From NCBI GenBank assembly GCA_045650565.1, contig JAZRRG010000042.1:19546-83545 (forward strand): DNA of 64,000 nucleotides, given 5' to 3'. Origin of the DNA: Acutalibacteraceae bacterium. GTDB taxonomy: Bacteria > Bacillota > Clostridia > Oscillospirales > Acutalibacteraceae. Below are positions 19,878 through 44,023 of this stretch, piece by piece. Position 1 is the first letter of the stretch, and every line of letters starts with the position of its first letter. The notes below the pieces were generated by a model. That model searched no databases and was not told the origin of the DNA. It saw nothing but the letters and a program-made list of their open reading frames with translations. Made by a program: the position numbers and the translations under genes.

Positions 19878-19906
19878 TTGACACAATAAAAATCATAATG
19901 TAAAAT
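19878..19906 (+). promoter_or_regulatory. SigA-type promoter for the alpha-galactosidase gene
   Basis: TTGACA (19878-19883), 17-nt spacer, TAAAAT (19901-19906). Confidence 0.6.
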
Positions 19907-19939
19907 GGATATAACAACAAATATCAAGGTGGTAAAGAT

Positions 19940-22904: not shown

Positions 22905-22908
22905 GCGT

Positions 22909-23463: not shown

Positions 23464-25232
23464 TGACCGAAAATAAAGGAAAGGTATTAAGCATAAACGG
23501 AAACCTGGTGTCTGTAGAGTTTGTCGGCAATGTTTCTATGAATGAGATATGCTATGTTTTGGTGGGCGATACTGCTCTAAAAAGCGAGGTTATCCGCATA
23601 AGAGGAAATGTTGCGCAAATACAGGTATATGAAATGACCGAGGGTATCAAATGCGGAGATGTTGTAGAGTTTACGTCAGACATGCTGTCTGCCGAACTAG
23701 GCCCCGGCTTGCTCGGTCAAGTTTATGACGGACTTCAAAATCCACTTCACGTTTTAGCCGAACAGGCAGGTTGGTTTTTGGAACGTGGAAATTATGCGGA
23801 TGGACTGGATTCCGAAAAGAAGTGGGAATTTACCCCTACTGCCAAGGTGGGAGATGCTGTTCGTGCGGGTGAATATATAGGCACGGTTCCCGAAGGTCCG
23901 TTTACACATAAAATTTTAATCCCCTTTTATTTGCTTGGGAACTATACTGTAAAATCTATTGTAGAAAAGGGAGAGTATACCGTTAAAGAAACAGTTGCGG
24001 TTGTGACAGATGAGCGTGGCAGAGAGATATCAATAGCAATGTCTTTCAAATGGCCCGTTAAACGTGCGGTAAAATGCTACAGCGAACGTTTAGCGCCCGT
24101 AGAGACGATGGAAACCAAGGTGCGCCTTATTGATTCCTTCTTCCCCGTAGCCAAGGGTGGCACCTATTGTACCCCCGGACCATTCGGTGCAGGTAAAACC
24201 GTATTGCAACACACCACATCGAAGTATGCCGATGTAGATATCGTTATTATCGCTGCTTGCGGTGAGCGTGCGGGTGAGGTTGTTGAAACCTTGACCGAGC
24301 TGCCCGAACTTACAGACCCAAGAACAGGTCGTTCGCTTATGGAACGCACCATAATTATATGCAACACCTCCTCTATGCCAGTTGCGTCCCGTGAGGCGTC
24401 GGTTTACACCTCGGTTACACTTGCCGAATATTATCGACAAATGGGACTTCACGTTCTTCTTTTGGCGGACTCCACATCCCGTTGGGCACAGGCACTTCGT
24501 GAGATGTCGGGTAGACTTGAGGAAATCCCCGGTGAAGAGGCGTTCCCTGCATATTTGGAATCTTATATTGCGGCATTTTACGAAAGAGCAGGTTATGTTC
24601 GCCTGTCTGATGGTAGCACGGGCTCGGTTACTATAGGCGGTACCGTATCACCTGCGGGCGGTAACTTCGAGGAGCCCGTAACACAGGCGACATTAAAGGT
24701 TGTAGGCGCTTTCCACGGTCTTTCCCGTGAGCGCTCGGATGCAAGAAAATATCCCGCTATAGACCCGCTTATATCCTGGTCAAAATATAATAGCGTTATA
24801 GATGAAGAAAAATTAGAGTTTTGCAAAAATATTCTTCATCATGGCAGTGAAATTGATTCGATGATGAAGGTTGTAGGTGAGGAGGGTACACCTCTTTCAG
24901 ATTACATTACCTACTTAAAATCCGAAATGCTGGATGCGGTTTATCTGCAACAAAACTCTTTTGATTTGGTTGAGGCAAACTGCTCAACAGCACGTCAACG
25001 CTATGTTACAAATAAATTAGTATATGTTTTGGGCAGTAATTATACTGTGCAAAACAAGGATGATGCACGAAGCTTCTTTAACAGAATGCGCCAAAAGTTT
25101 ATTGACTGGAACTATACCGAGTTTGAGAGCGATGAATTTAAAGCGGCTGAGAAGGAAATAGATGCTTTATACCGTAGGGGTGACGGCAAATTGTCCGCAC
25201 TGGCTGAAAAACTATTGAAGGATGGTGAATAA
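23463..25232 (+). CDS. ntpA: V-type ATPase catalytic subunit A
   Basis: Walker [10 protein letters not shown], Walker B region [12 protein letters not shown], and [15 protein letters not shown]. Confidence 0.95.
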
Positions 25233-25234
25233 GG

Positions 25235-26530
25235 GTGAATAAAGTATATAACAAAATAGAATCTATCACCGGTAACGTTATCACTGTCCGAGCAAATGGT
25301 GTTCAGTACAAGGAATTGGCACAAATAAGCACACGCTTTGGTAAATCTTTAGCCCAGGTTAACAAGATAGAGGGCGACATAGTATCGCTTCAGGTGTTTG
25401 CGGGCGGTCAAGGTGTTTCCACAGGCGATGAGGTACGCTTCTTAGGTCACGAAATGCGAGTATCGTTTAGTGAAGATTTGTTAGGCCGTATATTCAACGG
25501 CTCGGGTGAGCCGAGAGATAAGGGACCCGCACTTGCGGAAAACATGAAGTCCATAGGCGGACCCTCCGTTAATCCTACCAAGCGTATTCTTGCTAACCGA
25601 ATGATGAGAACCAATATTCCAATGATAGATATGTTCAACACCTTGGTGGTATCTCAAAAATTGCCGATTTTCTCGATTTCAGGTGAGCCGTACAACCAGC
25701 TTCTTGCCCGTATTGCAATGCAGGCCGAGGCCGATGTAATCGTTCTTGGCGGTATGGGACTGAAATACGATGATTTTCTGTATTTTAAGGATGCGCTTTC
25801 CAAGGGCGGCGCTTTAAGCAAAACCGTTATGTTTATCCATACAGCGTCCGACCCTACGGTTGAATGTATGATGATTCCCGATATGGTTTTGGCGGTAGCC
25901 GAGCAGTTCGCACTGCAAAACAAGGATGTATTGGTGCTGCTGACCGATATGACCAACTTTGCCGATGCTATGAAGGAAATCGCCATTATTCAAGAACAGG
26001 TGCCGTCTAACCGCGGATATCCCGGTGACTTATATTCTCAGCTTGCTTCCCGTTATGAAAAGGCGGTTGACTTTGCCGATTCCGGCTCGGTTACCGTTTT
26101 AGCGGTTACTACTATGCCGGGTGATGATGTAACCCATCCTGTTCCCGATAATACAGGATATATTACCGAGGGACAGTATTATCTTAAGGGAGGTCGCATA
26201 GAGCCGTTTGGTTCGCTCTCCCGTCTTAAGCAAAATGTAAACGGCAAAACACGAAAAGACCACAGGGCACTTATGGATGGAATGATACGCTTGTATTCTT
26301 CTTACAAGGAAACGCTTGAAAAGAAAAACATGGGCTTTTCTATGAGTCGCTGGGATGAAAAATTGCTAAAATACGGTGAGCTTTTTGAAGATAAAATGAT
26401 GTCACTGTCGGTTAATCTTTCGCTTGAAGAGGCGCTTGATTTAGGATGGGAAATTTTAGCAGACTGCTTTGAAAAGCAAGAAACCGGAATTAAGTCAGAC
26501 CTTACTGATGAGTTTTGGCCTAAAGGGTAA
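25235..26530 (+). CDS. ntpB: V-type ATPase subunit B
   Basis: GTG start. The sequences [27 protein letters not shown] and [11 protein letters not shown] are typical of the non-catalytic B subunit. Confidence 0.95.
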
Positions 26531-26544
26531 GGAGGACTGTAGTT

Positions 26545-27177
26545 TTGGCAAAAATCAAACTAACTAAAAATGAGTTAAAGGTACAAAAGGACGCACTAAA
26601 AATGTACCGCAGATATTTGCCTACTCTGACACTGAAAAAGCAACAGCTCCAAACGGAAATTCGCACGATTGAAGCCAAGGCAAAGGCAGTAAGAAAAGAA
26701 AGAGAAAACCTTGAATTTGGGTTTAGAGATTGGATTGCTGTCTTTAGCCAAAGCGATGCATTCCCTAAAGGTGTGATAACGGTTGACAATATTCGCAAAG
26801 GAAAGGGTAATATTGCGGGTGTTGATATACCCACCTTTGAGGGTGCGGATTTTAAAAGAGGCGATTATGACCTCTACGAAACACCTCTTTGGGTGGACAT
26901 AGCCGCAAATCATATGGAAAAGGCAATGTCCCTTGATTTAGAGGCGGAAGTGTTGGATGAGCAGGTTAGACTGTTAGAGATAGAGCTACTTGCAACCTCT
27001 CAAAGAGTAAACCTGTTTGAAAAGGTTAAAATTCCCGAAACAGAGGAAAATATTAAAAAAATATCAATATATATGGCAGACCAACAGGTTAGTGCCGTAG
27101 TGCGTTCAAAAATATCAAAACGCAAAATAGCCCTTCGCAATGCGGTGGCTTCCGAAAAGGAGGTTTATGCATTATGA
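26545..27177 (+). CDS. ntpD: V-type ATPase subunit D
   Basis: TTG start after AAGGAGG. N-terminal KLTKNELKVQKDALKMYRRYLPTL and coiled-coil character. Confidence 0.85.
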   Translation: MAKIKLTKNELKVQKDALKMYRRYLPTLTLKKQQLQTEIRTIEAKAKAVRKERENLEFGFRDWIAVFSQSDAFPKGVITVDNIRKGKGNIAGVDIPTFEGADFKRGDYDLYETPLWVDIAANHMEKAMSLDLEAEVLDEQVRLLEIELLATSQRVNLFEKVKIPETEENIKKISIYMADQQVSAVVRSKISKRKIALRNAVASEKEVYAL

Positions 27178-29096
27178 TTGTGCCTATGAAAAAGGTGTCC
27201 CTTTTTATAAAGGGAGATAAAAAACAGGAAACCCTCAAAAAACTTCGCAAATTAGGAATTGTTCATATTGAAATAACCGAGGGCGCAGGTGAAAAGCTTG
27301 TAGAATTAGGAGAGCAGATTGCTTTGCTCGAAAATGCGGCTTTCACAATAGGCAAAAAGAAAGATGCCGAGCAAAAAAGCATAACGTATAAAAAAGCTTT
27401 GTCTATTGCAACCGAAATTGCTGCCCTTGAGGAAGAAAAAAAGAAATGCCAAGCCGAAAGGATTGCGCTGAATTCCGAGCTTGACCGCCTAAAAAGCTGG
27501 GGTGATATTGACCCGAACAGTATAAGCGATTTGGCGGCAAGAGGGGTCGAGGTGTCCTTTTACGAGATGCCACGAAGTGAGTATGAGGCGTTGCCCGACA
27601 GCATTAAAACCGTAAAGCTTGAGCAGAGCAAAGCTTCACTCAAGTTTTTACTGCTCGAATCTGATTCGGTGCTCGATGGTAAGGTTGTTTCATCCTTGAA
27701 CAGTTGCAGATTGGTACTGCCACAAGCATCCACCGAACAAATGAGGCAAAAAATTTCCGAAATCAGCGCTCGTATCGATGCGATAGATGAGCAAACGGCG
27801 TCATATATTTGTTATGCTGACAGTATTAGGGATGCAATAAAGTTGCTTGAAAAGGAAATCGAATTTGAAACCTATACTACGGGTATGGCAGATGAAAACC
27901 TGTCGGCTAACGGAAATAATGCGGTTTCGGTAGCTTATTTCAAGGGATATATCGAGCAAGAAAACCTTGATAGGTTAAAAATAAGCGCAAAGAAAAATTC
28001 TTGGGGACTTCTCATAGAGGAGCCGAGCGAAGAGGATAACGTTCCTACAAAGCTAAAAAACAATAGGTTTGTAAGTCTTATTTATCCCTTAACCGATTTT
28101 CTCGGCACCGTTCCCGGATATTTTGAGTATGACATTTCGGGCTGGTTTTTGGCGTTCATACTTATATTCTTCGGTATTATTTTCGGAGATGGAGGTTATG
28201 GACTGCTGATATCCTTAGTGGCGGCGATTCCTGTTATAAAATCGCTTATTAACAAAAAGAAAGCTTCCCCCTTGTTTTTACTTGTAGGACTCTTCGGGCT
28301 GTCAACTGTTTTTTGGGGAACGCTTACTTGCACTTGGTTTGGTCTTTCGCCCGAGCAGCTACCTGCGTGGCTGAAAAGCTTGTCCATACCGGTAATCTCA
28401 AATGTGTATGCGGATAAAATTTGGCAGTTACCTTGGACCGATAGCGGTGTGGGACTCACAACGGCTCAAAATCTGCAAATATTCTGCTTTTCACTCGCCC
28501 TGATACAGCTTACGGTCGCTCACATAAAGGGTGCTGTGAGAAATAAGGGTAAGGTTAAAATGCTGGGGGACATCGGTTCCATATTACAGCTTTTAGGTAT
28601 TTATTATTTGGTGCTGAGTTTGGTTGTTAACGCCCAGGTATTTAGCTTCGGGCTCGTAATCGGCGGTATTCCCGTAGGAACTCTCGCCATCGCCCTTATA
28701 GCCATCGGCTTTGTTTTAAGCTTTGTGTTTTCAAACTATGAAGGCAGTATAATAAAATCGATACTTTCAAGTCTTACAAATATCGTGTCGGTATTGCTCG
28801 GTGTTGTAAACGTGTTCTCGGACATTGTTTCGTATATACGCCTTTGGGCTGTAGGACTCGCAGGTGCCGCAATATCTGCAACGGTAAACGAACTTGCAGG
28901 ACCGTTACTTGGCAACTTCTTGTTTATGATACTGGCTATTGTTTTGTTGGTGTTCGGTCACGGACTGAATATGATATTAAATGTTTTGTCGGTTATCGTT
29001 CACGGAATCAGACTTAACACCTTAGAATTCTCCTCGCATTTAGATATGTCGTGGAGTGGGCATAAATTCAAACCATTTAAAGAACAAATTGATTAA
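27174..29096 (+). CDS. ntpI: V-type ATPase subunit I (membrane stator, a-subunit homologue)
   Basis: ATGA overlap with ntpD. A soluble N-terminal half is followed by about 7 TM helices, with the conserved YIRLWAVGLAG arginine motif. Confidence 0.85.
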   Translation: MIVPMKKVSLFIKGDKKQETLKKLRKLGIVHIEITEGAGEKLVELGEQIALLENAAFTIGKKKDAEQKSITYKKALSIATEIAALEEEKKKCQAERIALNSELDRLKSWGDIDPNSISDLAARGVEVSFYEMPRSEYEALPDSIKTVKLEQSKASLKFLLLESDSVLDGKVVSSLNSCRLVLPQASTEQMRQKISEISARIDAIDEQTASYICYADSIRDAIKLLEKEIEFETYTTGMADENLSANGNNAVSVAYFKGYIEQENLDRLKISAKKNSWGLLIEEPSEEDNVPTKLKNNRFVSLIYPLTDFLGTVPGYFEYDISGWFLAFILIFFGIIFGDGGYGLLISLVAAIPVIKSLINKKKASPLFLLVGLFGLSTVFWGTLTCTWFGLSPEQLPAWLKSLSIPVISNVYADKIWQLPWTDSGVGLTTAQNLQIFCFSLALIQLTVAHIKGAVRNKGKVKMLGDIGSILQLLGIYYLVLSLVVNAQVFSFGLVIGGIPVGTLAIALIAIGFVLSFVFSNYEGSIIKSILSSLTNIVSVLLGVVNVFSDIVSYIRLWAVGLAGAAISATVNELAGPLLGNFLFMILAIVLLVFGHGLNMILNVLSVIVHGIRLNTLEFSSHLDMSWSGHKFKPFKEQID

Positions 29097-29109
29097 AAGG
29101 AGAATTATT

Positions 29110-29535
29110 ATGAATTTAGGAACATTGGGAACAGCGTTGGCTATGGGCATTGCCGCAATCGGCTCTGCTATTGGTATTGGTATTGCAGGTCAGGCATCAA
29201 TAGGTGCCTGGAAAAAGTGTTATATGAGCAACAAGGCAGCGCCGTTTATTCTTACTGTTTTTGCAGGTGCTCCGCTAACACAAACCATTTACGGCTTCCT
29301 TTTAATGCAGCAAATGAAGGCATCAACCGCCGACCCTGCATTTTTGCTGGGTATCGGAATCGCATCAAGTGTAGCGATGGCTGCCTCTGCTGTTTTTCAG
29401 GGTAAGGCGGGTGCCGCAGGCGCAGATGCATTAGCCGAGACAGGAAAGGGCTTCTCGCAGTATATTACTGTTGTTGGCCTTTGCGAAACAGTTGCATTGT
29501 TCGCACTTGTTTTCAGTATGGTAGCTTTAGGATAA
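29110..29535 (+). CDS. ntpK: V-type ATPase proteolipid subunit K (4-TM duplicated c-subunit)
   Basis: ATG 29110 follows AAAGGAG. PLTQTIYGF, FQGKAGAAG and GLCETVALFALV resemble the Enterococcus hirae NtpK ion-site segments. The ORF-track start at 29056 overlaps ntpI. Confidence 0.85.
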   Translation: MNLGTLGTALAMGIAAIGSAIGIGIAGQASIGAWKKCYMSNKAAPFILTVFAGAPLTQTIYGFLLMQQMKASTADPAFLLGIGIASSVAMAASAVFQGKAGAAGADALAETGKGFSQYITVVGLCETVALFALVFSMVALG

Positions 29536-29577: not shown

Positions 29578-29696
29578 ACGAAAAAAACGTTAAAAAAGGG
29601 ATAAAAACCATAAAAAAGCAGTTGAAAAAGGTGACCGCTTGTGATATCATTATTATGTATAAAAATAGGTTATTGTATCTTAACGGAGGTATACAA

Positions 29697-35600: not shown

Positions 35601-36710
35601 CATGGTGAGCTTACCTTTGGTGTTAACTGTACCTCTATTGGACAGATGGCTTTCCATAACAACAAAAACTTAAAAGCCGTTTACATCTTAAATCCCGATT
35701 GTAGAATTGGCGATGATGCGTTCTCTGAAAGCACCAAAATTTTCGGTGTTGAGGGTTCCCAAGCTGAAAGATATGCCGAAAAATTCGGAAACGAATTTGT
35801 GGCTATAAAGGCAGGCGAGATGCCCAAGATTTCGGAAATTAAGGATACCGGCAACTATGTATTGGTTGGTGATGCCGCTACTTCAAGCGTAGTTGAATAT
35901 AAGCGCAAGGATGAAAGCAAGGGCTATTCACCCAAGGTTACCTTCCCCGATAAAATAGATGGTGCTAAAATGACAACTATTGGGGGCTCGTTATTTAGCA
36001 ATAAGCCGTACTCATATTCTTTGGAAGCGGTAGTAATTGCCGAGGGCTATACCACTATCGGTGATTCGGCGTTTAGCGGCTGCGCTAGACTCTCAAGAGT
36101 ACAACTTCCGTCAACACTTACCACTATTGGCGGTAAGGCCTTTGCAAACACTGCTTTAACAGGTGACCTGGTAATTCCCGAATCGGTAACCAAGATAGGC
36201 AGTAGTGCTTTTGCAGGATGTAATCTTAACTCTGTTACCATTTCGAATCCGACAGTAGAGATATCCGGCTTCGCATTTTCTAATGTTACAATTAGGGGCT
36301 TGACCAATTCTACGGCCGAAGAGTACTACTTAAAGTACAAGAGCAAGGGTCTTAAGTGGGTATCGATAGGCGAGTATAATGACCCGAACGCTCCGAAGGA
36401 AGAAGAACAGAGTGGCAGCACTCAACAAAATGGTGGCGATGTTAACGACCAAGGAACCATCACATTGTTTGGTGTTGAGGTTAACGACTTTACATTTATT
36501 ATCATAGTTGGAATTGGCGGTCTGATGCTCATTCTTCTTGTCGTAGGTGTTGTAATCGTATTGGTTGTTGTTAAGTCAAATGAAGACGATGATGATGACG
36601 ATGATGATGACGATGATGATGATGATGATGATGATGATGACGATGATGATGACGATGATGACGATGACGATGATGACGATGACGATGATTACGAAGATGA
36701 TGATGAATAG
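29697..36710 (+). CDS. Giant (2337-aa) cell-surface protein: signal peptide, three Ig-like plus jelly-roll-like modules, five BspA-type LRR blocks, C-terminal TM helix and poly-Asp tail
   Basis: ATG 29697 follows ACGGAGG, and the signal peptide is ALSMLIILAVVICSFGTTLSTFA. See the findings for repeat architecture. The LRR blocks resemble KI.DSAF..C..L..I.LP..L..IG..AF. TM segment FTFIIIVGIGGLMLILLVVGVVIVLVVV, then KSNE-D35-YEDDDE. Confidence 0.8.
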   Translation: MNVTFKHFSKKALSMLIILAVVICSFGTTLSTFANLGGRAEGVENYEVSYRSPAVPMFKNTMIDLSALKVQLTKDGELVSGADITWSATDPAVADCLDVAEKTFSAFATGIFKVTATYNAVSKDIYFMVNEAGNYNFVLLEYDFAKNTFNADDWIVAMANGARPSSVTTINAATEHAKFYRIDINALGGSSKVFNVETSRATIYGTNTNYMVFYKAPILADFADYEFSSVVRSENWYDSSNSVSRGFILRANINTNAAIYNGANATAASIFTLPEDTTTATGTGLYLTNYLYGGISVGAYGKGYFDGTTTAAAGQVRYGYNAYGFHTLGANYDNYKVIDGKSNGATFDKNYLVTKASTARRTVDITLKGNDIKYTVDKNYTVLDTINNDKVYQIKNAVIDSASYATSNEEFDFDAAFAAKGVSDAGNAIGFQATHNGIQVYSFSVKLAGIDGAEDMPAASALSFETISAKNNIIETAVGESVNFAKYLYEFIGGTYLGNALTFGFSDSDAPSNDAASTISGKTFTSNSKGVYNITGTYGSEKIEFTVIVTDGVNKLYQVEDGSPAIPMFVTTSVDLGDMVFGFKNNLYYYGADIDWGVDESNSNNAGVILDNANKTVSVIATGTYCLKATVNTTAGVQERRVYLLVNNEGDLDFKLVDYDFSKNKFNADEWVLAISNGSAPADVTTINVGTKHDKFYKVPTKTQNGNIKILDVATTSVHFFGQKTNYLAFYKTPVLADFADYIFSSTVDVSYEDYDSTYTNRGFVLRANINTAAANYDGTNAAASSIFKLAGDTDTATGTGLYLMSFPYGAISLGAYGKGWFAGQGADRYGYNRYTVHSLGNTAADYGRFAIDLTPDANYLLSDEKQLVKRAVEITLKGNDVKYVLDGNTLLDSFSKPVYMLQDAMINNASFPTVNSELVNFDSEFERYGVTEAGNAIGFAVTHAGLRIHSFSVKLIGIETEADMPAAEPFNAYIVKESSPALPMTAATKISLSDFMVQLGGITYKASDADWGSVAAVQNGAVANGVKIEGGNIVAYERGVYSVTATSKDGTNRTATIYIIVKNADEDEYVIYEKDYRDGKTDTSDWKTTVLAADGTDLGISISGDTRKDSGLIYDWATSSISKPINGFVPYSPTDLFDKVRAVKGTKDKDTVKYGTYTLLDNDVVNALSDYTVTAGLGGYQGYRGSVGVVGRVTGTVDGKYTPGTSTDVGFASATGGNYMIDSTYVAKNNPYVTLNGASSKVDISDSAIKNYYYTSLNNAGKTLIYRSFEVQYNGSNMSVYTPYGDSYTTTIQGGKGTVGVVAFTHTQHNSANIAGIVLADFKVSLKNLDLSNLKYTEITYNPAKTPVVAPNYTDNGNYKITVKDAYISAVDIKNSSNAYSQKIVIPSTVDGKKITAVGTNVFYTLSSSVKQLTNAFHEVVISEGIIEVQANAFRGNYLIDKITLPETLTKIGNYAFTTTHIIDLVIPSAVATLDEGAFYGATCLHTVKIGSSSNEIENLYKSNLKTIAKRVFFNNKSLGEVKLPMGLRQIGEEAFKGCDNLKKIYIYNSETVIMTGAIPATAVIYGATGSTAQAYADANGNTFVAIDDKIAEVKTAYDAYMAALEAEAEAKSQVTDTNAAYVLSKKSTSFVYGVTDLVPSNSAAGKFVLPTKGSYTSPAGITTNDVTVTYVNASAFKNSAYGLSLYNVVIPKGYNEIQSSAFAGCLNLRYITLPDTLHFIRDYAFESTNLRTVTLPINTAVIGNGAFRNASSLTTVTFAEGSVCYTLGESAFQGTAITTIKLPVHLRTIGKKAFADTPLTDVYIYNREAKIGEDAFPAGTKVHGIKGSTAEAYAKANGLTFVADVTDTWDTVINTVNPNGKFVFSIGKTGAYGVSAYTAGGKVVIPSVADVTDSEGTVTKGAFISKIDINMFKEKNNRYQLFSVVLPEGITKIEDSAFYQCANLVKINLPASIVSVQSYAFSSCDIHGELTFGVNCTSIGQMAFHNNKNLKAVYILNPDCRIGDDAFSESTKIFGVEGSQAERYAEKFGNEFVAIKAGEMPKISEIKDTGNYVLVGDAATSSVVEYKRKDESKGYSPKVTFPDKIDGAKMTTIGGSLFSNKPYSYSLEAVVIAEGYTTIGDSAFSGCARLSRVQLPSTLTTIGGKAFANTALTGDLVIPESVTKIGSSAFAGCNLNSVTISNPTVEISGFAFSNVTIRGLTNSTAEEYYLKYKSKGLKWVSIGEYNDPNAPKEEEQSGSTQQNGGDVNDQGTITLFGVEVNDFTFIIIVGIGGLMLILLVVGVVIVLVVVKSNEDDDDDDDDDDDDDDDDDDDDDDDDDDDDDDDDDDDYEDDDE
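36585..36689 (+). repeat. (GAT/GAC)35 trinucleotide tract encoding 35 consecutive Asp residues
   Basis: Counted directly: 105 nt of uninterrupted GAT/GAC codons, longest pure GAT run 9 codons, followed by TAC GAA GAT GAT GAT GAA TAG. Confidence 0.95.
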
Positions 36711-36727
36711 TCATTAGAAACAAAATT

Positions 36728-36763
36728 AAATATAGCCGCCGAATTATCGGCGGCTATATTTGT
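36728..36763. terminator. Perfect 15-bp hairpin terminator after the giant gene
   Basis: aaatatagccgccga-atta-tcggcggctatattt. Confidence 0.75.
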
Positions 36764-36811
36764 AAGAGTAGGAAATATTTTTAAAAAATAGGAATAATTA
36801 CTAATTTTATA

Positions 36812-36840
36812 TTGACTTTATAATTTTCTTATCGTATAAT
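36812..36840 (+). promoter_or_regulatory. SigA-type promoter for the glycyl-radical enzyme operon
   Basis: TTGACT (36812-36817), 17-nt spacer, TATAAT (36835-36840). Confidence 0.65.
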
Positions 36841-36863
36841 AATCTTGAAAGGGGCAGAGAATT

Positions 36864-38849
36864 ATGTCTGAATTATTACAATATATTATTGCAAAAAAAC
36901 ACCATCAATTCCGCAAAACAGTTGATTGGGATTTAGGGCGTGAGTATAGCGAAAAGGGTTTAACCCCCGTGGAGCGTATGACCGACCGTTTTGAGCGTAT
37001 GACAGCGGCTGAAACCCCTGTTATTTTGCCTGATGAAAAAATCTGTTTTATGCGCACTATTACAAATATTCCCGATTGCTTTACCGAGCAAGAGTGGAAG
37101 GAAATTAAATCCAAGCACTTTATTCACGAGCTTGGCTATATTTCCAACATGTGCCCTGATTACGGCATGGTAATCTCCCGTGGACTTTTAGAAATTCGTG
37201 AAACAGCCGATGAATATAGCAAGAGAAGTATTGATGCTATCATTCGCCTTGCTGATAGATATAAGGAAGAAGCGCTCCGCCAAGGAAGAAAGGATATCGC
37301 CGATACGCTAGAGCGGGTACCACGCTATTCGGCTACCAATCTTCGTGAAGCGCTGCAGTTTTTCCGTATTATCCACTATTCAATGTGGCTTGAGGGTAAC
37401 TATCACAATATAGTAGGTCGCTTTGATAAATATATGTATCCTTACTTTAAAAAGGATATGGATGCAGGTGTTTACACCTATGAAACAGCGCTTGAATTGA
37501 TAGAGGACTTTTTCCTGTCCTTTAATAAAGATAGCGATACCTATGTTGGCGTTCAACAGGGCGATAACGGTCAGGCGTTAGTTCTTGGCGGTGTAGATGA
37601 GAATGGAAACGAAATATTCAGTGAACTTTCCAAAATTTGCCTGGAGGCATCTCGCAATCTTAAGGTTATTGACCCCAAAATCAACCTTCGTGTTAATAAA
37701 AACACACCCATCGAAATTTATGAGCTTGGCACCGAGCTTACAAAGGCGGGTCTTGGCTTCCCGCAGTATAGCAACGATGATGTCGTAATTAAGGGACTTG
37801 TTAATTTCGGCTATGAAGAAAAGGATGCCAGAGATTATGCAGTCGCTGCTTGCTGGGAGTTCTTGATTCCCGGTGTTGGTGCAGATGTATGTAATATAGG
37901 CGCAATGTCCTATCCCGGAATTGTAGACCGTGCCTTCCATAAGGCATTACCGAACTGCAAGACATTCGATGAATTTATGGATGCTGTTAAATCTGAAATC
38001 AGAGCCGAGTGTGACCGCATTACCGATAACGTAAAGGATTTGTGGTTTGTTCCCGCACCCTTTATGAAGATTTTAACTCCTATGGAGGATATCATGGTTC
38101 GTGGTAAGTACAACAACTTTGGTATTCACGGTACAGGTATTGCAACTGCCGCCGACTCTATCGCAGCCGTTAAAAAGTATGTATTTGATGAAAAAAAATA
38201 CACAGCCGAAGAGTATATTAAGGCGGTTGATGAGGACTTTGCTAACGATAGCGATATGTTGGCAGTTCTTCGTTACGAAGCTCCTAAAATGGGACAAAAC
38301 GATGATTATGTTGACACTATCAGTGTAGAGATGCTCGAATATTGTGCCGATTATCTCGGAACAAAGACTAACTGCCGTGGCGGTAAATGGCGTGGCGGTA
38401 CAGGTTCGGCTATGTTCTATTTGTGGCATGCTGCTGAAATTGGCGCATCACCTGATGGTAGACGCAAGGGTGAGCCGTTCGGCACAAATTTCTCGGGTAG
38501 TATTTTTGCAAAAATGCCCGGACCTATCTCGGTAATTTCTTCGTTCAGCAAACAAAACTTCACAAAGACCATCAACGGCGGACCGTTGACACTCGAATTC
38601 CATGGCGGTATGTTCAATAACGCTGATAGCATTGGTAAGGTTGCCCGTCTTGTAAAATCATACTTTGATATGGGCGGACATCAGCTACAGCTTAATGCCG
38701 TAAATGCCGAAGCAATGAGAGATGCACAGCTGCATCCCGAAAACCACGGACAGCTGGTTGTTCGTATTTGGGGATGGAGTGCATATTTCGTTGAGCTTGA
38801 TAAGGAGTATCAGGACCACGTTCTTGCCCGTCAGGAATATACTATATGA
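36864..38849 (+). CDS. Glycyl-radical enzyme (PFL-like superfamily), unusually short (661 aa), substrate unknown
   Basis: C-terminal glycyl-radical motif VVRIWGWSAYF (Gly637, nt 38772-38774). Cys-loop candidate DYAVAACWEFLIPG (Cys330, nt 37851-37853). Immediately followed by an activase gene. Confidence 0.8.
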   Translation: MSELLQYIIAKKHHQFRKTVDWDLGREYSEKGLTPVERMTDRFERMTAAETPVILPDEKICFMRTITNIPDCFTEQEWKEIKSKHFIHELGYISNMCPDYGMVISRGLLEIRETADEYSKRSIDAIIRLADRYKEEALRQGRKDIADTLERVPRYSATNLREALQFFRIIHYSMWLEGNYHNIVGRFDKYMYPYFKKDMDAGVYTYETALELIEDFFLSFNKDSDTYVGVQQGDNGQALVLGGVDENGNEIFSELSKICLEASRNLKVIDPKINLRVNKNTPIEIYELGTELTKAGLGFPQYSNDDVVIKGLVNFGYEEKDARDYAVAACWEFLIPGVGADVCNIGAMSYPGIVDRAFHKALPNCKTFDEFMDAVKSEIRAECDRITDNVKDLWFVPAPFMKILTPMEDIMVRGKYNNFGIHGTGIATAADSIAAVKKYVFDEKKYTAEEYIKAVDEDFANDSDMLAVLRYEAPKMGQNDDYVDTISVEMLEYCADYLGTKTNCRGGKWRGGTGSAMFYLWHAAEIGASPDGRRKGEPFGTNFSGSIFAKMPGPISVISSFSKQNFTKTINGGPLTLEFHGGMFNNADSIGKVARLVKSYFDMGGHQLQLNAVNAEAMRDAQLHPENHGQLVVRIWGWSAYFVELDKEYQDHVLARQEYTI

Positions 38850-39658
38850 TAGGCACGGTTTTTGATATCAAAGAAATGACGGTACACGACGGCCCCGGCA
38901 GTCGTGTTACCGTGTTCTTAAAGGGTTGTCCTTTGCGCTGTCTTTGGTGCCATAACCCCGAGGGGTTGTCGGCAAAGCCGCAGCTAATGGTTAAGGAAAA
39001 CCTTTGTGTGCACTGTGGACTTTGCAAAAAAGGTTGCGCTCATACAGAGTGTCAACCTTTTGAGCGCTGTATACACGCATGTCCCAAGGGGCTTGTGTCG
39101 ATTAGCGGCACACAAATGACCAGTGAAGAGTTAGCCGAGAGGTTAAATTCTTATGCAACGTTTTTAAACCGTGTCGGCGGCGGAGTGACATTTTCGGGTG
39201 GCGAGCCGCTACTTCAAGCCGACTTTGTTGCCGAAACGGCAAAGATGCTGCCTAATATACATAAGGCGCTTCAAACCAGCGGCTATGCTGACAGTGAAAA
39301 GTTTAAAAAGGTTTTAGAAACGATGGACTATGTGCTTTTTGATTTAAAGCTGGCGGATGAAGCCGAGCACATAAAATATACAGGCGTTTCTAACAAGCAA
39401 ATAATAGAAAACTATAAAATTTTAGAGAAAAGCGGCAAGGAGTTTGTCACCCGTGTTCCGCTTATCCCGGGAATTACCGACACAAAGGATAATTTATCTC
39501 GTATCGCTGCTATTGCGGGGGAAAACAAAGTGGAGATTATGCGTTATAACACAATGGCGGGTGCGAAATATCGGTCGGTGGGATTAGAATTTTCCTTGCC
39601 CGACCTTAAATCCAACGAGGTGGATTTATCGGTCTTTAAAAACGCCGAAATGCTATAA
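38846..39658 (+). CDS. Glycyl-radical enzyme activating protein (radical SAM)
   Basis: 4-nt overlap with the enzyme gene. Radical SAM triad CPLRCLWCHNPE. Cys-rich ferredoxin-like insert CVHCGLCKKGCAHTECQPFERCIHACP. SAM-binding GGEPLLQ. Confidence 0.85.
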   Translation: MIGTVFDIKEMTVHDGPGSRVTVFLKGCPLRCLWCHNPEGLSAKPQLMVKENLCVHCGLCKKGCAHTECQPFERCIHACPKGLVSISGTQMTSEELAERLNSYATFLNRVGGGVTFSGGEPLLQADFVAETAKMLPNIHKALQTSGYADSEKFKKVLETMDYVLFDLKLADEAEHIKYTGVSNKQIIENYKILEKSGKEFVTRVPLIPGITDTKDNLSRIAAIAGENKVEIMRYNTMAGAKYRSVGLEFSLPDLKSNEVDLSVFKNAEML

Positions 39659-39716
39659 AAAATATTTTTTTATAAAAAAAACAATAATTTATAGCAATGT
39701 AAATAAAAAACGCTTT

Positions 39717-39755
39717 AAAACCGCAATATTACGATAATATTGCGGTTTTCTTTTT
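39717..39755 (+). terminator. Rho-independent terminator of the glycyl-radical enzyme operon
   Basis: ccgcaatatt-acgat-aatattgcgg followed by ttttctttttgg. Confidence 0.85.
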
Positions 39756-39763
39756 GGCAAAAA

Positions 39764-39811
39764 ACGGAATATATATTGTTTTAATTTAAAACAAACCACA
39801 ATATTTTGTGT
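39764..39811 (+). promoter_or_regulatory. Tandem NrdR boxes
   Basis: Box 2, ccacaatattttgtgt (39796-39811), matches the 16-bp consensus acaCwAtATaTwGtgt at 14 of 16 positions. Box 1, acggaatatatattgt (39764-39779), matches at 13 of 16. Centre-to-centre distance is 32 bp. Confidence 0.65.
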
Positions 39812-39819
39812 TTTGGGTG

Positions 39820-39848
39820 TTGACAAGCCGAATTTGTTGTGCTATACT
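39820..39848 (+). promoter_or_regulatory. SigA-type promoter (extended -10) for nrdG-nrdD
   Basis: TTGACA (39820-39825), 17-nt spacer ending in TGc, TATACT (39843-39848). Confidence 0.65.
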
Positions 39849-39885
39849 AATGGAGCACCGCAAAAAACGACAAAGAGAGAATTAA

Positions 39886-40572
39886 ATGAACATACAGGGT
39901 TTTCAAAAATTAACATTACTTGATTTTCCGGGCAAAACCGCCTGCACGGTGTTTACGGGTGGTTGTAACCTTCGGTGTCCGTTTTGTCATAACGGCTCCT
40001 TGGTGACAAACCCTACCGAGCAGGAAAGCACTGAAAATGAGTGTTTAGAGTATTTAAAGAAGCGTGTCGGTATTATTGACGGTGTGTGTATCACGGGCGG
40101 CGAGCCGCTGCTCCAACCCGATTTGTTAGCGTTTATTAAGAAATGCAAGGAAATCGGCGTAGATATAAAACTTGATACCAACGGTGCAATGCCCGAAAAA
40201 TTAGAAAAGGTAATAAAAAGCGGACTTGTTGATTATATAGCGATGGATATTAAAGCCGCACCTAACGGATATAAAAGGGCGGTAGGCGTTGATACCGATT
40301 TTGTTGAATTTTTAAAAAGTATGGAGATAATAAGAAATAGTGGAGTGCCCTATGAGTTTCGCACAACTGCGGTTAAGGGACTGCACAAACCCTCCGATTT
40401 CGAGGAAATCGCAAAGCTATTAAAAAAGGATGAAAAATATTTCATCCAAAAATTCACAGATTCGGGCAATCTATTAAAGCCCGAAGGACTCGGCAGTTTT
40501 TCGGATACCGAAACCCAGCAAATCGTTGAAAATGTAAAAAAATATATCCCCGGTGTTGCCACAAGGGGATAA
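39886..40572 (+). CDS. nrdG: Anaerobic ribonucleoside-triphosphate reductase activating protein
   Basis: SLLDFPGK-type N-terminus (LTLLDFPGKTACTVFTGGCNLRCPFCHN) and GGEPLLQ. Adjacent to nrdD. Confidence 0.85.
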   Translation: MNIQGFQKLTLLDFPGKTACTVFTGGCNLRCPFCHNGSLVTNPTEQESTENECLEYLKKRVGIIDGVCITGGEPLLQPDLLAFIKKCKEIGVDIKLDTNGAMPEKLEKVIKSGLVDYIAMDIKAAPNGYKRAVGVDTDFVEFLKSMEIIRNSGVPYEFRTTAVKGLHKPSDFEEIAKLLKKDEKYFIQKFTDSGNLLKPEGLGSFSDTETQQIVENVKKYIPGVATRG

Positions 40573-40591
40573 GATATAAGGGGTAAAAACT

Positions 40592-42964
40592 ATGTATAAG
40601 GTAATTAAGAGAGACGGCATACAGGTAGATTTTGAAATCTCCAAAATTTCCGATGCCATCAAAAAAGCTTTCGAAGCTTGCGAGCGCAACTACAACGATA
40701 ATATTATTGACTTTTTGGCGCTCAAAGTAACCTCCGATTTTGAGCCGAAGGTACAAAGCGGTCTCGTAGCGGTTGAGGATATTCAGGATAGCGTTGAAAC
40801 GGTGCTGGTACAAGCGGGCTATGCCGATGTTTCAAAGGCATACATCCTTTACCGTAGACAGCGTGAAAAATTGCGTAATATGAAGTCGACAATTCTCGAT
40901 TACAAAGAGATTGTTAATCAGTACGTTAAGAATCTTGACTGGCGTGTTAAGGAAAACTCTACCGTTACCTATTCGGTAGGCGGACTTATCTTAAATAACT
41001 CGGGTGCTATTACGGCTAACTATTGGCTTTCTGAAATTTATGATGATGAAATTGCAAAGGCACATAAAAATGCCGATATTCATATTCACGACCTTTCAAT
41101 GCTCACCGGTTACTGCGCCGGTTGGTCTTTAAAACAACTTATAGAGGAGGGTCTTGGCGGTGTTGGCGGTAAGATTACATCAGCCCCCGCTAAGCACTTG
41201 GCAACCCTTTGTAACCAAATGGTTAACTTCTTAGGTATTATGCAAAACGAGTGGGCAGGCGCTCAGGCGTTCTCATCCTTTGATACCTATTTAGCCCCCT
41301 TCGTTAAGGCAGACAACCTAAGCTATGATGCAGTTAAGAAGTGCATTGAGTCCTTTATCTACGGTGTAAACACACCTTCTCGTTGGGGTACTCAGGCACC
41401 CTTTACAAACATAACTCTTGACTGGACAGTTCCGCACGACCTAGAGGATGAGTATGCTATCGTTGGCGGTAAGCGTATGGACTTTAAATACGGCGACTGT
41501 AAGAAGGAAATGGATATGGTTAACCGTGCCTTTATCGAGATTATGATAGAGGGCGACGCTAACGGTCGTGGTTTCCAGTATCCGATTCCGACCTATTCCA
41601 TCACCAGGGACTTTGACTGGTCTGAGACCGAGAACAACAAGCTTCTCTTCGAGATGACCTCAAAATACGGAACGCCCTACTTCTCAAACTATGTAAACTC
41701 TGATATGGAGCCGAGCGATGTACGTTCAATGTGCTGTCGCCTGCGTCTTGACCTTCGTGAGCTTCGCAAAAAGTCGGGCGGCTTCTTTGGTAGCGGCGAG
41801 AGCACCGGTTCAGTAGGTGTTGTTACCATAAATATGCCGAGAATCGCTTACTTGGCTGAGGATAAGGCAGACTTCTTCCGTCGCCTTGACCATATGCTTG
41901 ATATTTCGGCTCGCTCACTTAAAATCAAGCGTACCATTATTACAAAGCTGCTTGATGAGGGACTTTATCCCTACACCAAGCGTTATCTTGGAACCTTTAA
42001 CAACCACTTCTCAACCATCGGTCTTGTTGGTATGAACGAAGCGGGTCTTAACGCTAAGTGGCTGCGCAGCGATATGACAACCAAGCAAACTCAGGAATTC
42101 ACCAAGGAAGTACTCAACCATATGAGAGAGCGACTTTCCGATTATCAGGAAATGTATGGCGACCTTTACAATTTGGAAGCCACTCCTGCTGAGTCTACAT
42201 CCTTCCGTCTTGCTAAGCACGACCGCAAGCACTATCCCGATATCATTTGTGCATCTGATGCAGATACACCCTACTATACCAACTCTTCACATCTACCCGT
42301 TGGTTATACCGATGATATCTTTACAGCACTTGATGTTCAGGATGAGCTGCAAACACTTTACACCTCGGGTACAGTATTCCACGCATTTATCGGTGAGAAA
42401 TTGCCCGACTGGAAGGCAGCCGCTTCGATTATCCGCAAGATAGCTGAAAACTATCGCTTACCTTACTATACATTGTCTCCCACATACGCAGTATGTAAAG
42501 AGCATGGATATATTCCGGGTGAAACATACACTTGTCCTAAGTGCGGCAAGGAAACCGAGGTTTATAGCCGTATTACAGGTTACTACCGTCCTGTTAAGAA
42601 CTGGAACGACGGTAAAGCTCAGGAGTACCGTGAGCGCAAGACCTACGATATAGCAAATTCAGTACTCACACACGAGGGACCCAAAGATGACGGCTGTGAG
42701 TGTGAGGCAAAGCCGGCCGAGAACACCTTGGCTGACGGCATATATCTTTTTAAAACGGCAACCTGTCCCAACTGCAAGATAGCCGAAGCTTTGCTTGATA
42801 AGGCAGGTATTACCTACAATAAGGTATTGGCGGAGCAAAATGTGGCGCTTACCGAGTCGCTCGGCATCAAACAGGCGCCCACATTGGTTAGAGTAGAAAA
42901 CTCAAATGCCGAAAAATTCGCAACGGTGCCGAACATAAAGAAATTTATCAGCTCGGTTCAGTAA
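40592..42964 (+). CDS. nrdD: Class III (anaerobic) ribonucleotide reductase NrdD with an N-terminal ATP-cone and a C-terminal fused thioredoxin-fold (CPNC) domain
   Basis: ATP-cone VIKRDGIQVDFEISKISDAI. Cys-Cys at residues 381-382 (SMCCRLRLD). Zn-ribbon CKEHG...CPKCG. Glycyl-radical motif SRITGYYRPV (Gly663). Then roughly 85 extra residues carrying CPNC (nt 42764-42775). Confidence 0.95.
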   Translation: MYKVIKRDGIQVDFEISKISDAIKKAFEACERNYNDNIIDFLALKVTSDFEPKVQSGLVAVEDIQDSVETVLVQAGYADVSKAYILYRRQREKLRNMKSTILDYKEIVNQYVKNLDWRVKENSTVTYSVGGLILNNSGAITANYWLSEIYDDEIAKAHKNADIHIHDLSMLTGYCAGWSLKQLIEEGLGGVGGKITSAPAKHLATLCNQMVNFLGIMQNEWAGAQAFSSFDTYLAPFVKADNLSYDAVKKCIESFIYGVNTPSRWGTQAPFTNITLDWTVPHDLEDEYAIVGGKRMDFKYGDCKKEMDMVNRAFIEIMIEGDANGRGFQYPIPTYSITRDFDWSETENNKLLFEMTSKYGTPYFSNYVNSDMEPSDVRSMCCRLRLDLRELRKKSGGFFGSGESTGSVGVVTINMPRIAYLAEDKADFFRRLDHMLDISARSLKIKRTIITKLLDEGLYPYTKRYLGTFNNHFSTIGLVGMNEAGLNAKWLRSDMTTKQTQEFTKEVLNHMRERLSDYQEMYGDLYNLEATPAESTSFRLAKHDRKHYPDIICASDADTPYYTNSSHLPVGYTDDIFTALDVQDELQTLYTSGTVFHAFIGEKLPDWKAAASIIRKIAENYRLPYYTLSPTYAVCKEHGYIPGETYTCPKCGKETEVYSRITGYYRPVKNWNDGKAQEYRERKTYDIANSVLTHEGPKDDGCECEAKPAENTLADGIYLFKTATCPNCKIAEALLDKAGITYNKVLAEQNVALTESLGIKQAPTLVRVENSNAEKFATVPNIKKFISSVQ

Positions 42965-42972
42965 ATGCATAA

Positions 42973-43004
42973 ATACGGGGCGGCAAAACCGCCCCGTATC
43001 TTTT
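42973..43004 (+). terminator. GC-rich hairpin with a short U-tract between nrdD and the trxB-like gene (partial terminator or processing site)
   Basis: atacggggcgg-caaaa-ccgccccgtat followed by cttttg. The GAGGTG RBS of the next gene follows directly. Confidence 0.5.
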
Positions 43005-43016
43005 GAGGTGAAAACA

Positions 43017-43928
43017 ATGTATGATATTATTGTAATAGGCGCAGGTCCTGCGGGACTTACCGCCGCCATTTATGCCAAAAGAGCCAACAAGAATGTGCTC
43101 ATTCTTGAAAAGAACGGCTTTGGCGGACAAATAACATCCTCACCAAAGGTTGAAAATTATCCCGGCTTTGAGAGTGTCAGTGGCAGTGAGCTGGCCGACA
43201 GTATTGTGTCACAGGTATTAGCACAGGGTGCCGATGTCGAAATAGAAAAGGTAATAGAAATAAAGGATAACAGCAAAACAAAAACCGTTGTAACCGAGGA
43301 GGGTAACGAGTATGAGTGCCTGTCGGTTATAATTGCGGGTGGAGCGAAACACCGCCATTTAGGACTGCCGAATGAAGAAAAGTTCATAGGTGAGGGCATA
43401 TCCTTTTGTGCGGTTTGTGACGGTGCTTTTTATGATAATAAAACGGTAGCGCTGATAGGCGGAGGAAACTCGGCACTGCAGGAGGCAATACTGTTGTGTG
43501 AGACCTGCAAAAAGGTTTATGTTGTTCAAAATCTTGATTACCTAACAGGAGAAGAACGCCTACAGGAAATTTTGCGTAGTAGAGGAAATGCCGAAATTAT
43601 AACGGGAGCCGTAGTATGTAGCTTATCAGACGGAGAGAAGCTATCCCACATTATAATCAAGAAAACCGAGACGGGCGAGGAAATAAAGCTTGAAATTGAC
43701 GGTATGTTTGTAGCAATCGGTCTTGAGCCCGAGAACGATAACTTTAAAAATGTAGCCGACCTTGATAAATTTGGTTATATTGATACAGATGAAACCTGTG
43801 CTACCAGAACACCCGGCGTGTTCGTAGCGGGTGACTGCCGTAAAAAAGCGGTTCGCCAGGTAGCAACCGCCGTAGCCGACGGTGCCGTAGCCGCAATATC
43901 GGCATGTAGATATATTGATGCATTATAA
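43017..43928 (+). CDS. Thioredoxin-reductase-family flavoprotein (low-Mr TrxR-like; pyridine-nucleotide specificity uncertain)
   Basis: FAD site IIVIGAGPAG, redox-active CAVCDG, second dinucleotide site IGGGNSALQEA, GVFVAGDC. ATG 43017 follows GAGGTG (the ORF track starts at GTG 43008). Confidence 0.85.
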   Translation: MYDIIVIGAGPAGLTAAIYAKRANKNVLILEKNGFGGQITSSPKVENYPGFESVSGSELADSIVSQVLAQGADVEIEKVIEIKDNSKTKTVVTEEGNEYECLSVIIAGGAKHRHLGLPNEEKFIGEGISFCAVCDGAFYDNKTVALIGGGNSALQEAILLCETCKKVYVVQNLDYLTGEERLQEILRSRGNAEIITGAVVCSLSDGEKLSHIIIKKTETGEEIKLEIDGMFVAIGLEPENDNFKNVADLDKFGYIDTDETCATRTPGVFVAGDCRKKAVRQVATAVADGAVAAISACRYIDAL

Positions 43929-43935
43929 AACATAA

Positions 43936-43970
43936 AAAACAACCTACCAAATTTGGTGGGTTGTTCTCTT
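43936..43970 (+). terminator. Rho-independent terminator after the trxB-like gene
   Basis: caacctacca-(aatt)-tggtgggttg followed by ttctctt. Confidence 0.7.
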
Positions 43971-44023
43971 ATCTATATATAGAGTATAATGTAGTGAGTA
44001 TCCTCGTTTGTAGTGACACTTAA

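Follow-up and report, generated by a model that had tools for sequence, protein, structure and literature searches.

A compact glycyl radical enzyme and its dedicated activase in an Acutalibacteraceae genome: a distinct superfamily variant with a candidate role in sugar metabolism

Glycyl radical enzymes (GREs) perform many of the chemically hard steps of anaerobic gut metabolism, and the clades newly assigned in earlier work each revealed a new pathway, for example for turning choline into trimethylamine and for hydroxyproline, sulfonates and anhydro-sugars. Here we describe a GRE gene and its activase gene, which form a two-gene operon within a 64,000-nucleotide stretch of DNA (the window) from an Acutalibacteraceae bacterium (contig JAZRRG010000042.1, positions 19,546 to 83,545 of the forward strand). 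The enzyme belongs to a large and structurally distinct clade of compact GREs without an assigned function. Its closest described relatives by sequence and fold are glycerol dehydratase (GDH), propanediol dehydratase, HypD, CutC and PflD, and not pyruvate formate-lyase (PFL), the decarboxylases or the succinate synthases.

The best sequence matches, the GDH of Clostridium butyricum (1R8W/1R9D) and the 1,2-propanediol dehydratase of Roseburia inulinivorans (5I2A/5I2G), share with the window GRE a ten-stranded barrel, the Cys-X-Glu motif, a C-terminal glycyl radical domain and a TIGR02494-type activase. Every C-O eliminase keeps Cys-X-Glu, as do the sugar-phosphate isomerases YbiW and PflD, the only characterized GREs that act on a sugar ring, where they cleave a ring C-O bond after hydrogen abstraction beside a hydroxyl (PMC13450708). 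The histidine of a Gly-His ('GH') motif is the proposed acid in GDH (PMC13450708), and its counterpart in HypD, His160, is essential, the H160Q variant being inactive (PMC7077986). The radical glycine is carried by a C-terminal fingerprint, RVXG[FWY] (PMC11528403), the segment that precedes the barrel is reported to form the usual dimer interface, and most activases contain a ferredoxin-like domain with eight Cys and up to two auxiliary clusters (PMC13450708). A review of June 2026 describes neither the compact clade nor a free-sugar GRE among the eliminases and isomerases, and states that entire clades lack validation (PMC13450708). Literature searches pairing glycyl radical with GH36, raffinose, L-arabinose/mutarotase or capsule/nucleotide-sugar topics found no paper on the compact clade.

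A compact enzyme outside the characterized families

The GRE gene (36864..38849, + strand) encodes 661 aa and belongs to the GRE superfamily by domain content, fingerprint, catalytic Cys, activase and fold. Pfam detected the PFL-like domain (PF02901, 2.1e-85) and the Gly_radical domain (PF01228, 3.1e-16, residues 552-643), and an AlphaFold2 model computed from 75 aligned sequences, distant clade members among them (mean pLDDT 95.0, pTM 0.93) showed a complete barrel with both catalytic hairpins and no segment below pLDDT 50. A first run with 38 close homologues had given pLDDT values below 50 at the Gly loop and two pocket segments; these were not taken as disorder, and the low values disappeared with the larger alignment. 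The 50 GRE structures listed by Foldseek matched the model with E values of ~1e-45 to 1e-32 and query-normalized TM-scores of 0.75-0.89, the solved eliminase- and isomerase-type GREs reaching 0.84-0.89 at an identity of no more than 24%. The highest scores were those of YbiW and PflD (8ID7, 8ID0, 8YJO; acting on 1,5-anhydroglucitol-6-P and 1,5-anhydromannitol-6-P), at 0.88-0.89 query-normalized and 0.76-0.77 target-normalized with 21-22% identity; GDH and propanediol dehydratase, which are ~125-185 residues longer than the window GRE, scored 0.87-0.88 (query-normalized).

Despite this resemblance to the eliminase/isomerase group, the window GRE falls below the cut-off of the corresponding subfamily, TIGR01774 (PFL2/glycerol dehydratase; 283.6 bits versus 678.2), which 9 of 10 canonical length-matched representatives pass, and it lacks the GH histidine. 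It likewise reached no equivalog cut-off among the characterized families present in NCBIfam (HypD, CutC, HpfG, HpsG, PflD/YbiW-type, IAD, HPAD and PFL), for which the cut-offs range from 994 to 1150 bits. HypD (6VXC), with the same fold, Cys-X-Glu and activase type, was the second-best NCBIfam match, yet scored only 271 bits against 1100; HpfG (260 against 1000), PRK09983 of the PflD type (239 against 1109), CutC (232 against 1050), HpsG (229), IAD (228) and HPAD (177) followed. An earlier note, made by a model from the DNA letters and their open reading frames (ORFs), had described it as unusually short with a non-canonical Cys loop; membership of an already characterized family cluster, which would have contradicted that reading, is not borne out by these scores or by the low identity to solved GREs. 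The window GRE represents a distinct, widespread and uncharacterized variant within the known superfamily.

The same note had singled out the short length of the enzyme, which proved to be a property of the whole group and neither a mis-called start nor a deletion private to this assembly. All 120 of the closest database clusters (66-96% identity, 100% query coverage) are 655-686 aa long, nearly all of them 655-663 aa, and relatives are encoded at no fewer than 596 loci in a scan of one genome per species. Carriers include Acutalibacteraceae, Oscillospiraceae, Lachnospiraceae and Erysipelotrichaceae, among others, with the cultured strains Ructibacterium gallinarum DSM 107454 and 'Bacterium 1xD8-48' among them. 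A HMMER scan of 50%-identity representatives revealed a wider set of compact GREs of ~640-740 aa: of the nearest 104 representatives, the compact clade contributes 47 (clusters at 50% identity), with a median length of 687 aa versus 788 aa for 41 canonical representatives, and a sister clade is found at no fewer than 572 metagenome loci. About 190 alignment columns are invariant in the GRE family, all catalytic motifs included.

To locate the missing segments, compact GREs were aligned (MAFFT) with nine canonical proteins of ~790 aa, all of which pass TIGR01774. The compact proteins lack ~55-60 residues just before strand beta-1 (canonical positions ~107-170), and show further internal deletions of 20, 11, 5, 15, 5 and 5 residues that are shared across the clade. 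As the shortened pre-barrel segment corresponds to the reported dimer interface, the oligomeric state of the compact GRE may differ from that of the canonical enzymes.

The Gly loop, R634-I-W-G637-W-S639 (38763..38780, + strand), was assigned through Pfam and forms a beta-hairpin in the model (strands 632-634 and 639-641). The RIWGWS motif with Gly637, read earlier from the sequence, is exact; Gly637 is invariant in the family, and the loop conforms to the fingerprint with Ile for Val as a conservative change. The Cys loop, A328-A-C330-W-E332-F333 (37845..37862, + strand), provides the predicted thiyl radical Cys and general-base Glu, and HMMER alignment to 1r8w places C330 and E332 at C433 and E435 of GDH. 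The family shows no variation at A329, C330, W331 and E332. The earlier description of this loop (AACWEF) as non-canonical stands in part: the replacements relative to GDH and propanediol dehydratase, Ala for Gly before the Cys and Trp for Val after it, are signatures of the clade, whereas the Cys-X-Glu of the eliminases and isomerases is intact (C330-W331-E332).

Larger deviations, beyond those of the earlier note, were found elsewhere. At the position of the GH-motif histidine (GDH His164, HypD His160), located five residues before a conserved Tyr by MAFFT alignment, the window GRE reads Ser94-Asn95 (Asn95 codon at 37146..37148, + strand) instead of Gly-His. Asn occupies this position in 15/15 compact proteins compared to Gly-His in 9/9 canonical ones, and in the wider set in 47/47 clade representatives compared to His in 41/41 canonical representatives; this His precedes the catalytic Cys by 267-273 residues in the canonical proteins, by 269 in GDH and by 274 in HypD. 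In the Gly loop Trp636 replaces the Ala of GDH and propanediol dehydratase, being present in 47/47 clade representatives and 0/41 canonical ones. Asn95, Trp331 and Trp636 occur together in 47 of the 104 representatives with aligned Cys and Gly, and neither this signature nor the compact length is found in the canonical representatives that pass TIGR01774.

Further residues were mapped from the GDH alignment and the GH-motif spacing only; the HypD numbering (Ser334, Asp339, Phe340) was off by one and was not used. His181 corresponds to His281 of GDH, Asn182 to Ser282, Gly236 to Tyr339, Asn344 to Asp447 and Gly514 to Tyr640, so that Tyr gives way to Gly at two pocket positions. Gly236 lies within a pocket segment, Q231-Q-G-D-N-G-Q237 (37554..37574, + strand), in which 6 of 7 residues are invariant in the family and Q232 is nearly so. 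Among the 47 clade representatives, D234 is kept in 46, G236 in 47, Asn344 in 45 and the Ala before the Cys in 44. The altered Cys loop is therefore one visible element of a concerted remodelling that takes in both radical loops as well as the pocket and leaves the catalytic Cys and Glu unchanged.

Two subclades can be distinguished: subclade I (AACWEF / RVWGWS / His181; n = 25, query included) and subclade II (SACWEP / RVWGFS / Leu181; n = 21). One relative of the clade, P0162 (681 aa, 33% identical to the window GRE), shows R-L-W-S-S-G in the Gly loop instead of the clade's R-V-W-G-W/F-S. With Ser possibly in place of the radical Gly, it may be one of the seryl radical enzymes reported in PMC11528403; no Cys is aligned in its Cys-loop column, which makes the alignment uncertain there. 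Such aminoacyl radical enzymes are uncharacterized eliminase-like relatives of GREs, found mostly in metagenome-assembled genomes of gut Clostridia with varied gene neighborhoods (PMC11528403); they have Ala, Ser or Thr at the radical position, in contrast with the invariant Gly637 of the window GRE.

Genomic context and candidate substrate

No transporter, microcompartment or pathway gene adjoins the GRE operon in the window. The earlier statement that neighboring genes give no hint of a substrate is correct in this sense, but it does not extend to related loci, where a consistent carbohydrate signal was found. As an identical-sequence lookup of the window GRE returned no database record, the genomic context was taken from relatives, beginning with 79 loci of the immediate family. 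An AraC-type (usually divergent) or LacI-type regulator occupies position -1 in 27 of 71 loci, compared to 17 of 615 genes at other positions of the same loci, which served as the control (odds ratio 21.6, p = 3e-18), and GH36-type glycosidases are enriched near the GRE (12/193 vs 5/493, p = 3e-4). Individual loci show the orders GH127-GRE-activase (L072) and GalT-aldose 1-epimerase-GRE-activase (L061), and in L060 a solute-binding protein, two genes of a length typical of permeases, GH127, LacI, the GRE and the activase, with GH42 two genes on. GH123 is encoded nearby in L043 and L082, and GH51 and xylose-isomerase-like TIM-barrel proteins are also found near family GREs.

Proteins of the DUF4867 family are encoded directly beside the GRE pair, after the GRE or the activase, in L017, L020, L037 and L056. 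This is the family of SftX, a protein of unassigned role in sulfoquinovose clusters (PMC7491151). DUF4867 is taken here to mark a sugar context and not to point to sulfoquinovose; it is possible that DUF4867 proteins handle a free sugar, for instance by converting anomers or ring forms.

At 45-48% identity to the query, the sister clade differs from it in the mapped pocket only by Asp341->Glu and Ser515->Thr. Its context was analyzed in 43 non-redundant metagenome loci, from which 115 neighboring proteins were scanned with Pfam. The recurrent gene order is activase-GRE-MFS sugar transporter-aldose 1-epimerase-GH127, and the Pfam counts comprise Sugar_tr (15), Aldose_epim (9), Melibiase (7), GH127 (6), ABC ATPase (4), GH39 (3) and GH51 (2). 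One scanned ATPase and permease is of the BPD_transp_2 monosaccharide type, and LacI and GntR regulators are present as well. In many loci whose GREs are less than 85% identical to each other, the sugar transporter and the mutarotase directly adjoin the GRE pair and are co-directional with it. Published work describes GH127, GH51, GH39 and some GH36 enzymes as releasing L-arabinose or galactose from plant arabinogalactan proteins and extensins (PMC8056906, PMC10688797, PMC10850190). The monosaccharide transporters and the mutarotase thus point to a free reducing sugar, and the set of glycosidases to a galacto or arabino configuration. The substrates of YbiW and PflD are phosphorylated, in contrast with the free sugars suggested by the compact-GRE contexts (MFS/ABC monosaccharide transporters, mutarotase).

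The predicted pocket is compatible with such a substrate. Relative to the small-diol dehydratases it appears rebuilt, with Asn95 in place of the histidine that usually partners the glutamate, Gly236 and Gly514 in place of two aromatic wall residues, and new polar groups at Asp234, Asn235, Asn182, Asn344 and Thr513, and its content of Asp, Asn, Gln, His and Trp would be typical of sugar sites. Trp331, Trp636 and Trp638, on the catalytic loops, could stack on a sugar ring through CH-pi contacts. Because Gly replaces two aromatic wall residues, while Asp, Asn, Gln and Thr are added and Trp residues line the loops, a larger polyhydroxylated ring would be expected to fit.

Taken together, we are inclined, with moderate confidence, to regard the pair as a working GRE with a dedicated activase that catalyzes radical C-O cleavage on a carbohydrate, free D-galactose or L-arabinose being the best candidates; the substrate is probably a simple plant-derived sugar in gut bacteria. 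The gene structure, the fold, the motifs, the clade signature and the genomic associations are observed, and the reaction type, the substrate, the roles of single residues and the Trp stacking are proposed. Chemistry of the eliminase or isomerase type is suggested by the alignment of C330 and E332 with C433 and E435 of GDH, by the Cys-X-Glu motif and by the best matches in sequence and fold. In the mechanism that we propose, the [4Fe-4S] cluster held by the CX3CX2C motif of the activase would, with S-adenosylmethionine, take a hydrogen atom from Gly637, and the resulting glycyl radical would generate a thiyl radical on Cys330. This radical would abstract hydrogen from a carbinol carbon of the substrate, a galacto- or arabino-configured free monosaccharide released by glycosidases, and Glu332 would deprotonate the hydroxyl on that carbon to give a ketyl radical. 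Cleavage of the neighboring C-O bond would follow, as a dehydration or a ring-opening isomerization, and Cys330 would finally give the hydrogen atom back. In place of the GH histidine, we would guess that His181 or Asp234/Asp341 serves as the acid for the leaving group. As for regiochemistry, two courses are conceivable: a 2-deoxy-aldonolactone would arise if hydrogen is taken from C1 and the C2 hydroxyl is lost, and a reaction parallel to those of YbiW and PflD would result if hydrogen is taken from C4 of a pentopyranose and C5-O5 is cleaved. An aldose-to-ketose isomerization by YbiW-like ring opening at C1-O5 was set aside by reasoning only, as it needs no radical enzyme.

If the enzyme does act on free arabinose or galactose, the sugar fermentation routes of gut and rumen bacteria would be extended, with a new anaerobic route of plant-sugar catabolism in gut Clostridia and Bacteroidota. 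It would also reveal how an eliminase-like active site in a GRE can function when the customary histidine is missing, and would offer a minimal GRE scaffold with a minimal activase for engineering. The cultured strains of the family, R. gallinarum DSM 107454 and 'Bacterium 1xD8-48', make the sugar hypothesis directly testable.

Several observations weigh against this assignment. The absence of the GH histidine, essential in HypD and the proposed acid in GDH, means that the chemistry may differ from that of the classical eliminases, and the roles given to individual residues come from sequence mapping. Cys-X-Glu also occurs in HPA decarboxylase, and the motif alone is no proof of elimination. 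In only 41 of the 79 family loci is position -1 taken by a sugar-type regulator or a carbohydrate gene found at a distance of up to four genes, and among the recurrent neighbors of the GRE in the relatives' loci there is no kinase, aldolase or dehydrogenase. Because carbohydrate genes abound in gut Clostridia and the loci lack phylogenetic independence, the p-values given above overstate the link to carbohydrates. In the window itself the nearest carbohydrate gene, a canonical GH36 alpha-galactosidase (19940..22123) beside sugar ABC transporter genes, lies ~15 kb upstream, with a V-type ATPase operon (~22299..29535) and a surface-protein gene between it and the GRE, so that no substrate-related gene is adjacent.

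These points give some weight to another reaction or a non-carbohydrate substrate, such as that of a decarboxylase or of a C-C or C-N/C-S lyase, the sugar genes then being coincidental or reflecting co-regulation only. With the catalytic histidine lost and the Gly and Cys loops re-packed, the active site is unlike that of any characterized eliminase; about half of the family loci lack a nearby carbohydrate gene; and whole GRE clades are noted to be unassigned (PMC13450708). We nevertheless consider such a reaction unlikely, given that the sugar transporter and mutarotase are adjacent and co-directional in many loci with divergent GREs, that the AraC/LacI enrichment is specific to one position, and that the residues predicted to line the pocket resemble those of sugar sites.

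A trimmed small-diol dehydratase acting on glycerol or 1,2-propanediol, the aldehyde product of which would be reduced or oxidized by enzymes encoded elsewhere, seems more doubtful still. The best matches are indeed the B12-independent GDH (5e-75; 1.6e-92 in the profile search) and 1,2-propanediol dehydratase, Cys-X-Glu is retained, and an Fe-type alcohol dehydrogenase and an SDR are encoded beside the distant clade members P0127 and P0135, respectively. On the other hand, O'Brien and co-workers reportedly showed in 2004 that Ser282, Tyr339, Asp447 and Tyr640 of GDH bind or act on glycerol, and all four are replaced in the window GRE (by Asn182, Gly236, Asn344 and Gly514), as is His164 (by Asn95). 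The low identity (no more than 24%) and the score below the TIGR01774 cut-off also argue against this function, and the microcompartment and alcohol-dehydrogenase context of the diol dehydratases is missing from the compact GREs: neither a microcompartment shell family nor an aldehyde dehydrogenase family is among the 25 commonest neighbor Pfams of either set of loci.

It is very improbable that the GRE is tied to the neighboring nrd genes, for instance as an accessory radical enzyme of nucleotide metabolism. In the window nrdG, nrdD and the thioredoxin-reductase-like trxB directly follow the operon, and the same order is found in the close relative L003. Yet just 2 of 80 loci show this adjacency, the GRE comes with an activase of its own, and the two units are separated by the terminator of the GRE operon, two NrdR-box-like sites (39764..39779 and 39796..39811, 32 bp apart, with 3 and 1 mismatches to ACACWATATWTWGTGT) and the separate promoter of the nrdG unit (39820..39848). 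The NrdR-box pattern is not enriched in the window (9 matches vs 5.9 expected), and the reading of these two sites rests on their position and spacing. We take the adjacency to be incidental.

Even less credible is the pyruvate or 2-ketoacid formate-lyase activity implied by public annotation, in which NCBI labels homologues 'pyruvate formate-lyase', and by the Pfam domain name PFL-like. PFL requires two adjacent catalytic cysteines. The window GRE has Ala329-Cys330 instead of the Cys pair, scores 71.8 bits on TIGR01255 against a cut-off of 994.2, and matches PFL structures at only 1e-16 to 1e-17 compared to 5e-75 for GDH, and the public name was rejected on these grounds. Finally, a reading of the short GRE gene as an artefact of assembly, as truncated or as a pseudogene in decay, for which its unusual length is the sole support, is virtually discounted by the conserved length at full coverage, the number of loci, the invariant columns with all catalytic motifs, the confident and complete barrel model and the deletions common to the whole clade.

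Subclade II differs in context from the relatives described so far. Its members (~26-33% identical to the window GRE) were found in surface-polysaccharide biosynthesis clusters in 5/5 informative contexts, the GRE genes being located at 8001-10082 in L085/L086, 234-2303 in L089, 8001-10127 in L090, 7001-9037 in L171 and 1641-3869 in L173. Their neighbors encode a Wzx flippase, glycosyltransferases, NDP-sugar epimerases or dehydratases and a priming transferase, and a UDP-galactopyranose mutase or related flavoprotein is present in 4 of the 5 clusters, which are capsule or O-antigen loci. No paper linking GREs to glycan biosynthesis was found in the literature, and subclade II could represent the first GRE used in such a process. 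A broader proposal, which we put forward only tentatively, is that the compact GREs form a new class acting on unphosphorylated L-arabinose and/or D-galactose, with subclade II possibly engaged in glycan biosynthesis.

The activase and its auxiliary insert

The activase gene (38846..39658, + strand) encodes a radical SAM enzyme of 270 aa that scores 246.9 bits on TIGR02494, above the cut-off of 174.35, with the Pfam domains Radical_SAM and Fer4_12. Its association with the GRE is conserved in the immediate family, where the activase lies downstream of the GRE at position +1 in 62 of 75 loci and at +2 in seven more (69/75). The CX3CX2C motif for the SAM-binding [4Fe-4S] cluster (C28, C32, C35; 38927..38950, + strand) is invariant in 66/66 family activases. 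Right after this core, as in the canonical eight-Cys activases HPAD-AE, CutD and GD-AE, comes a Cys-rich insert, read as C54-X2-C-X2-C-X3-C64-X-H66-X2-C69-X5-C75-X3-C79(P) (39005..39082, + strand). Whereas the canonical enzymes have eight Cys in a longer domain, here exactly seven (54, 57, 60, 64, 69, 75 and 79) lie within 26 residues, the earlier note having already described a compressed insert with seven Cys, and all seven together with His66 are invariant in 66/66 family activases. The activase therefore departs from the eight-Cys ferredoxin-like arrangement, and its insert looks like a degenerate compact di-cluster motif.

A survey of genes adjoining compact GREs (L081, L091-L133, L084, L085, L089 and L090) revealed four states of this region across the clade: no insert (~250 aa), a compact eight-Cys insert, the seven-Cys-plus-His insert, and a full ferredoxin domain (~304 aa). 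Judging from these sequences, the auxiliary Fe-S insert appears to be dispensable or tunable in the compact-GRE lineage.

Operon layout and neighboring genes

The ORFs and their coordinates agree with the earlier description of an operon that consists only of the 661-aa enzyme and the 270-aa activase. Its putative promoter is of the sigma-70 type, TTGACT-17 nt-TATAAT (36812..36840, + strand), with 11/12 matches and located 23 nt upstream of the GRE ATG. As a promoter scan of the window returned 12 sites against 11.4 expected from shuffles, that is, not above chance, this call relies on the position and quality of the site. A ribosome-binding site, GAAAGGGG (36847..36854, + strand), was read from the sequence 9 nt before the ATG at 36864. 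The GRE stop and the activase start overlap by 4 nt (ATGA, in tatactatATGAtagg), which suggests translational coupling, and the operon ends in a predicted intrinsic terminator with a 15-bp stem followed by CTTTTT (39717..39749, + strand). With its own promoter and terminator, both of which had been predicted beforehand, and with the preceding gene closed by its own terminator hairpin (36728..36761, upstream of the GRE promoter), the GRE-activase unit is transcriptionally self-contained. An Rfam scan of 36000..44000 detected neither a riboswitch nor any other RNA element.

The gene upstream of the GRE (29622-36710) encodes a predicted surface protein of 2362 aa with repeated modules and a C-terminal hydrophobic segment, and this protein ends in a run of ~50 Asp/Glu residues; in a related locus the gene upstream of the GRE carries BspA-type LRR_5 repeats. 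Farther upstream, beyond the V-type ATPase operon, a carbohydrate utilization region (7353-22123) encodes two solute-binding proteins (one of 963 aa), ORFs similar in length to permeases, a DUF5696 protein, a Yip1-domain protein and the GH36 alpha-galactosidase.

Downstream, the NrdD of the window (40592-42964, 790 aa) has ~100 extra C-terminal residues with weak glutaredoxin-like matches (717-757, E ~2e-4). The gene that follows (43008-43928), thioredoxin-reductase-like by ORF reading, is homologous to genes beside nrdD in related loci, and together with the NrdD extension it suggests a thiol-based reductant system for NrdD.

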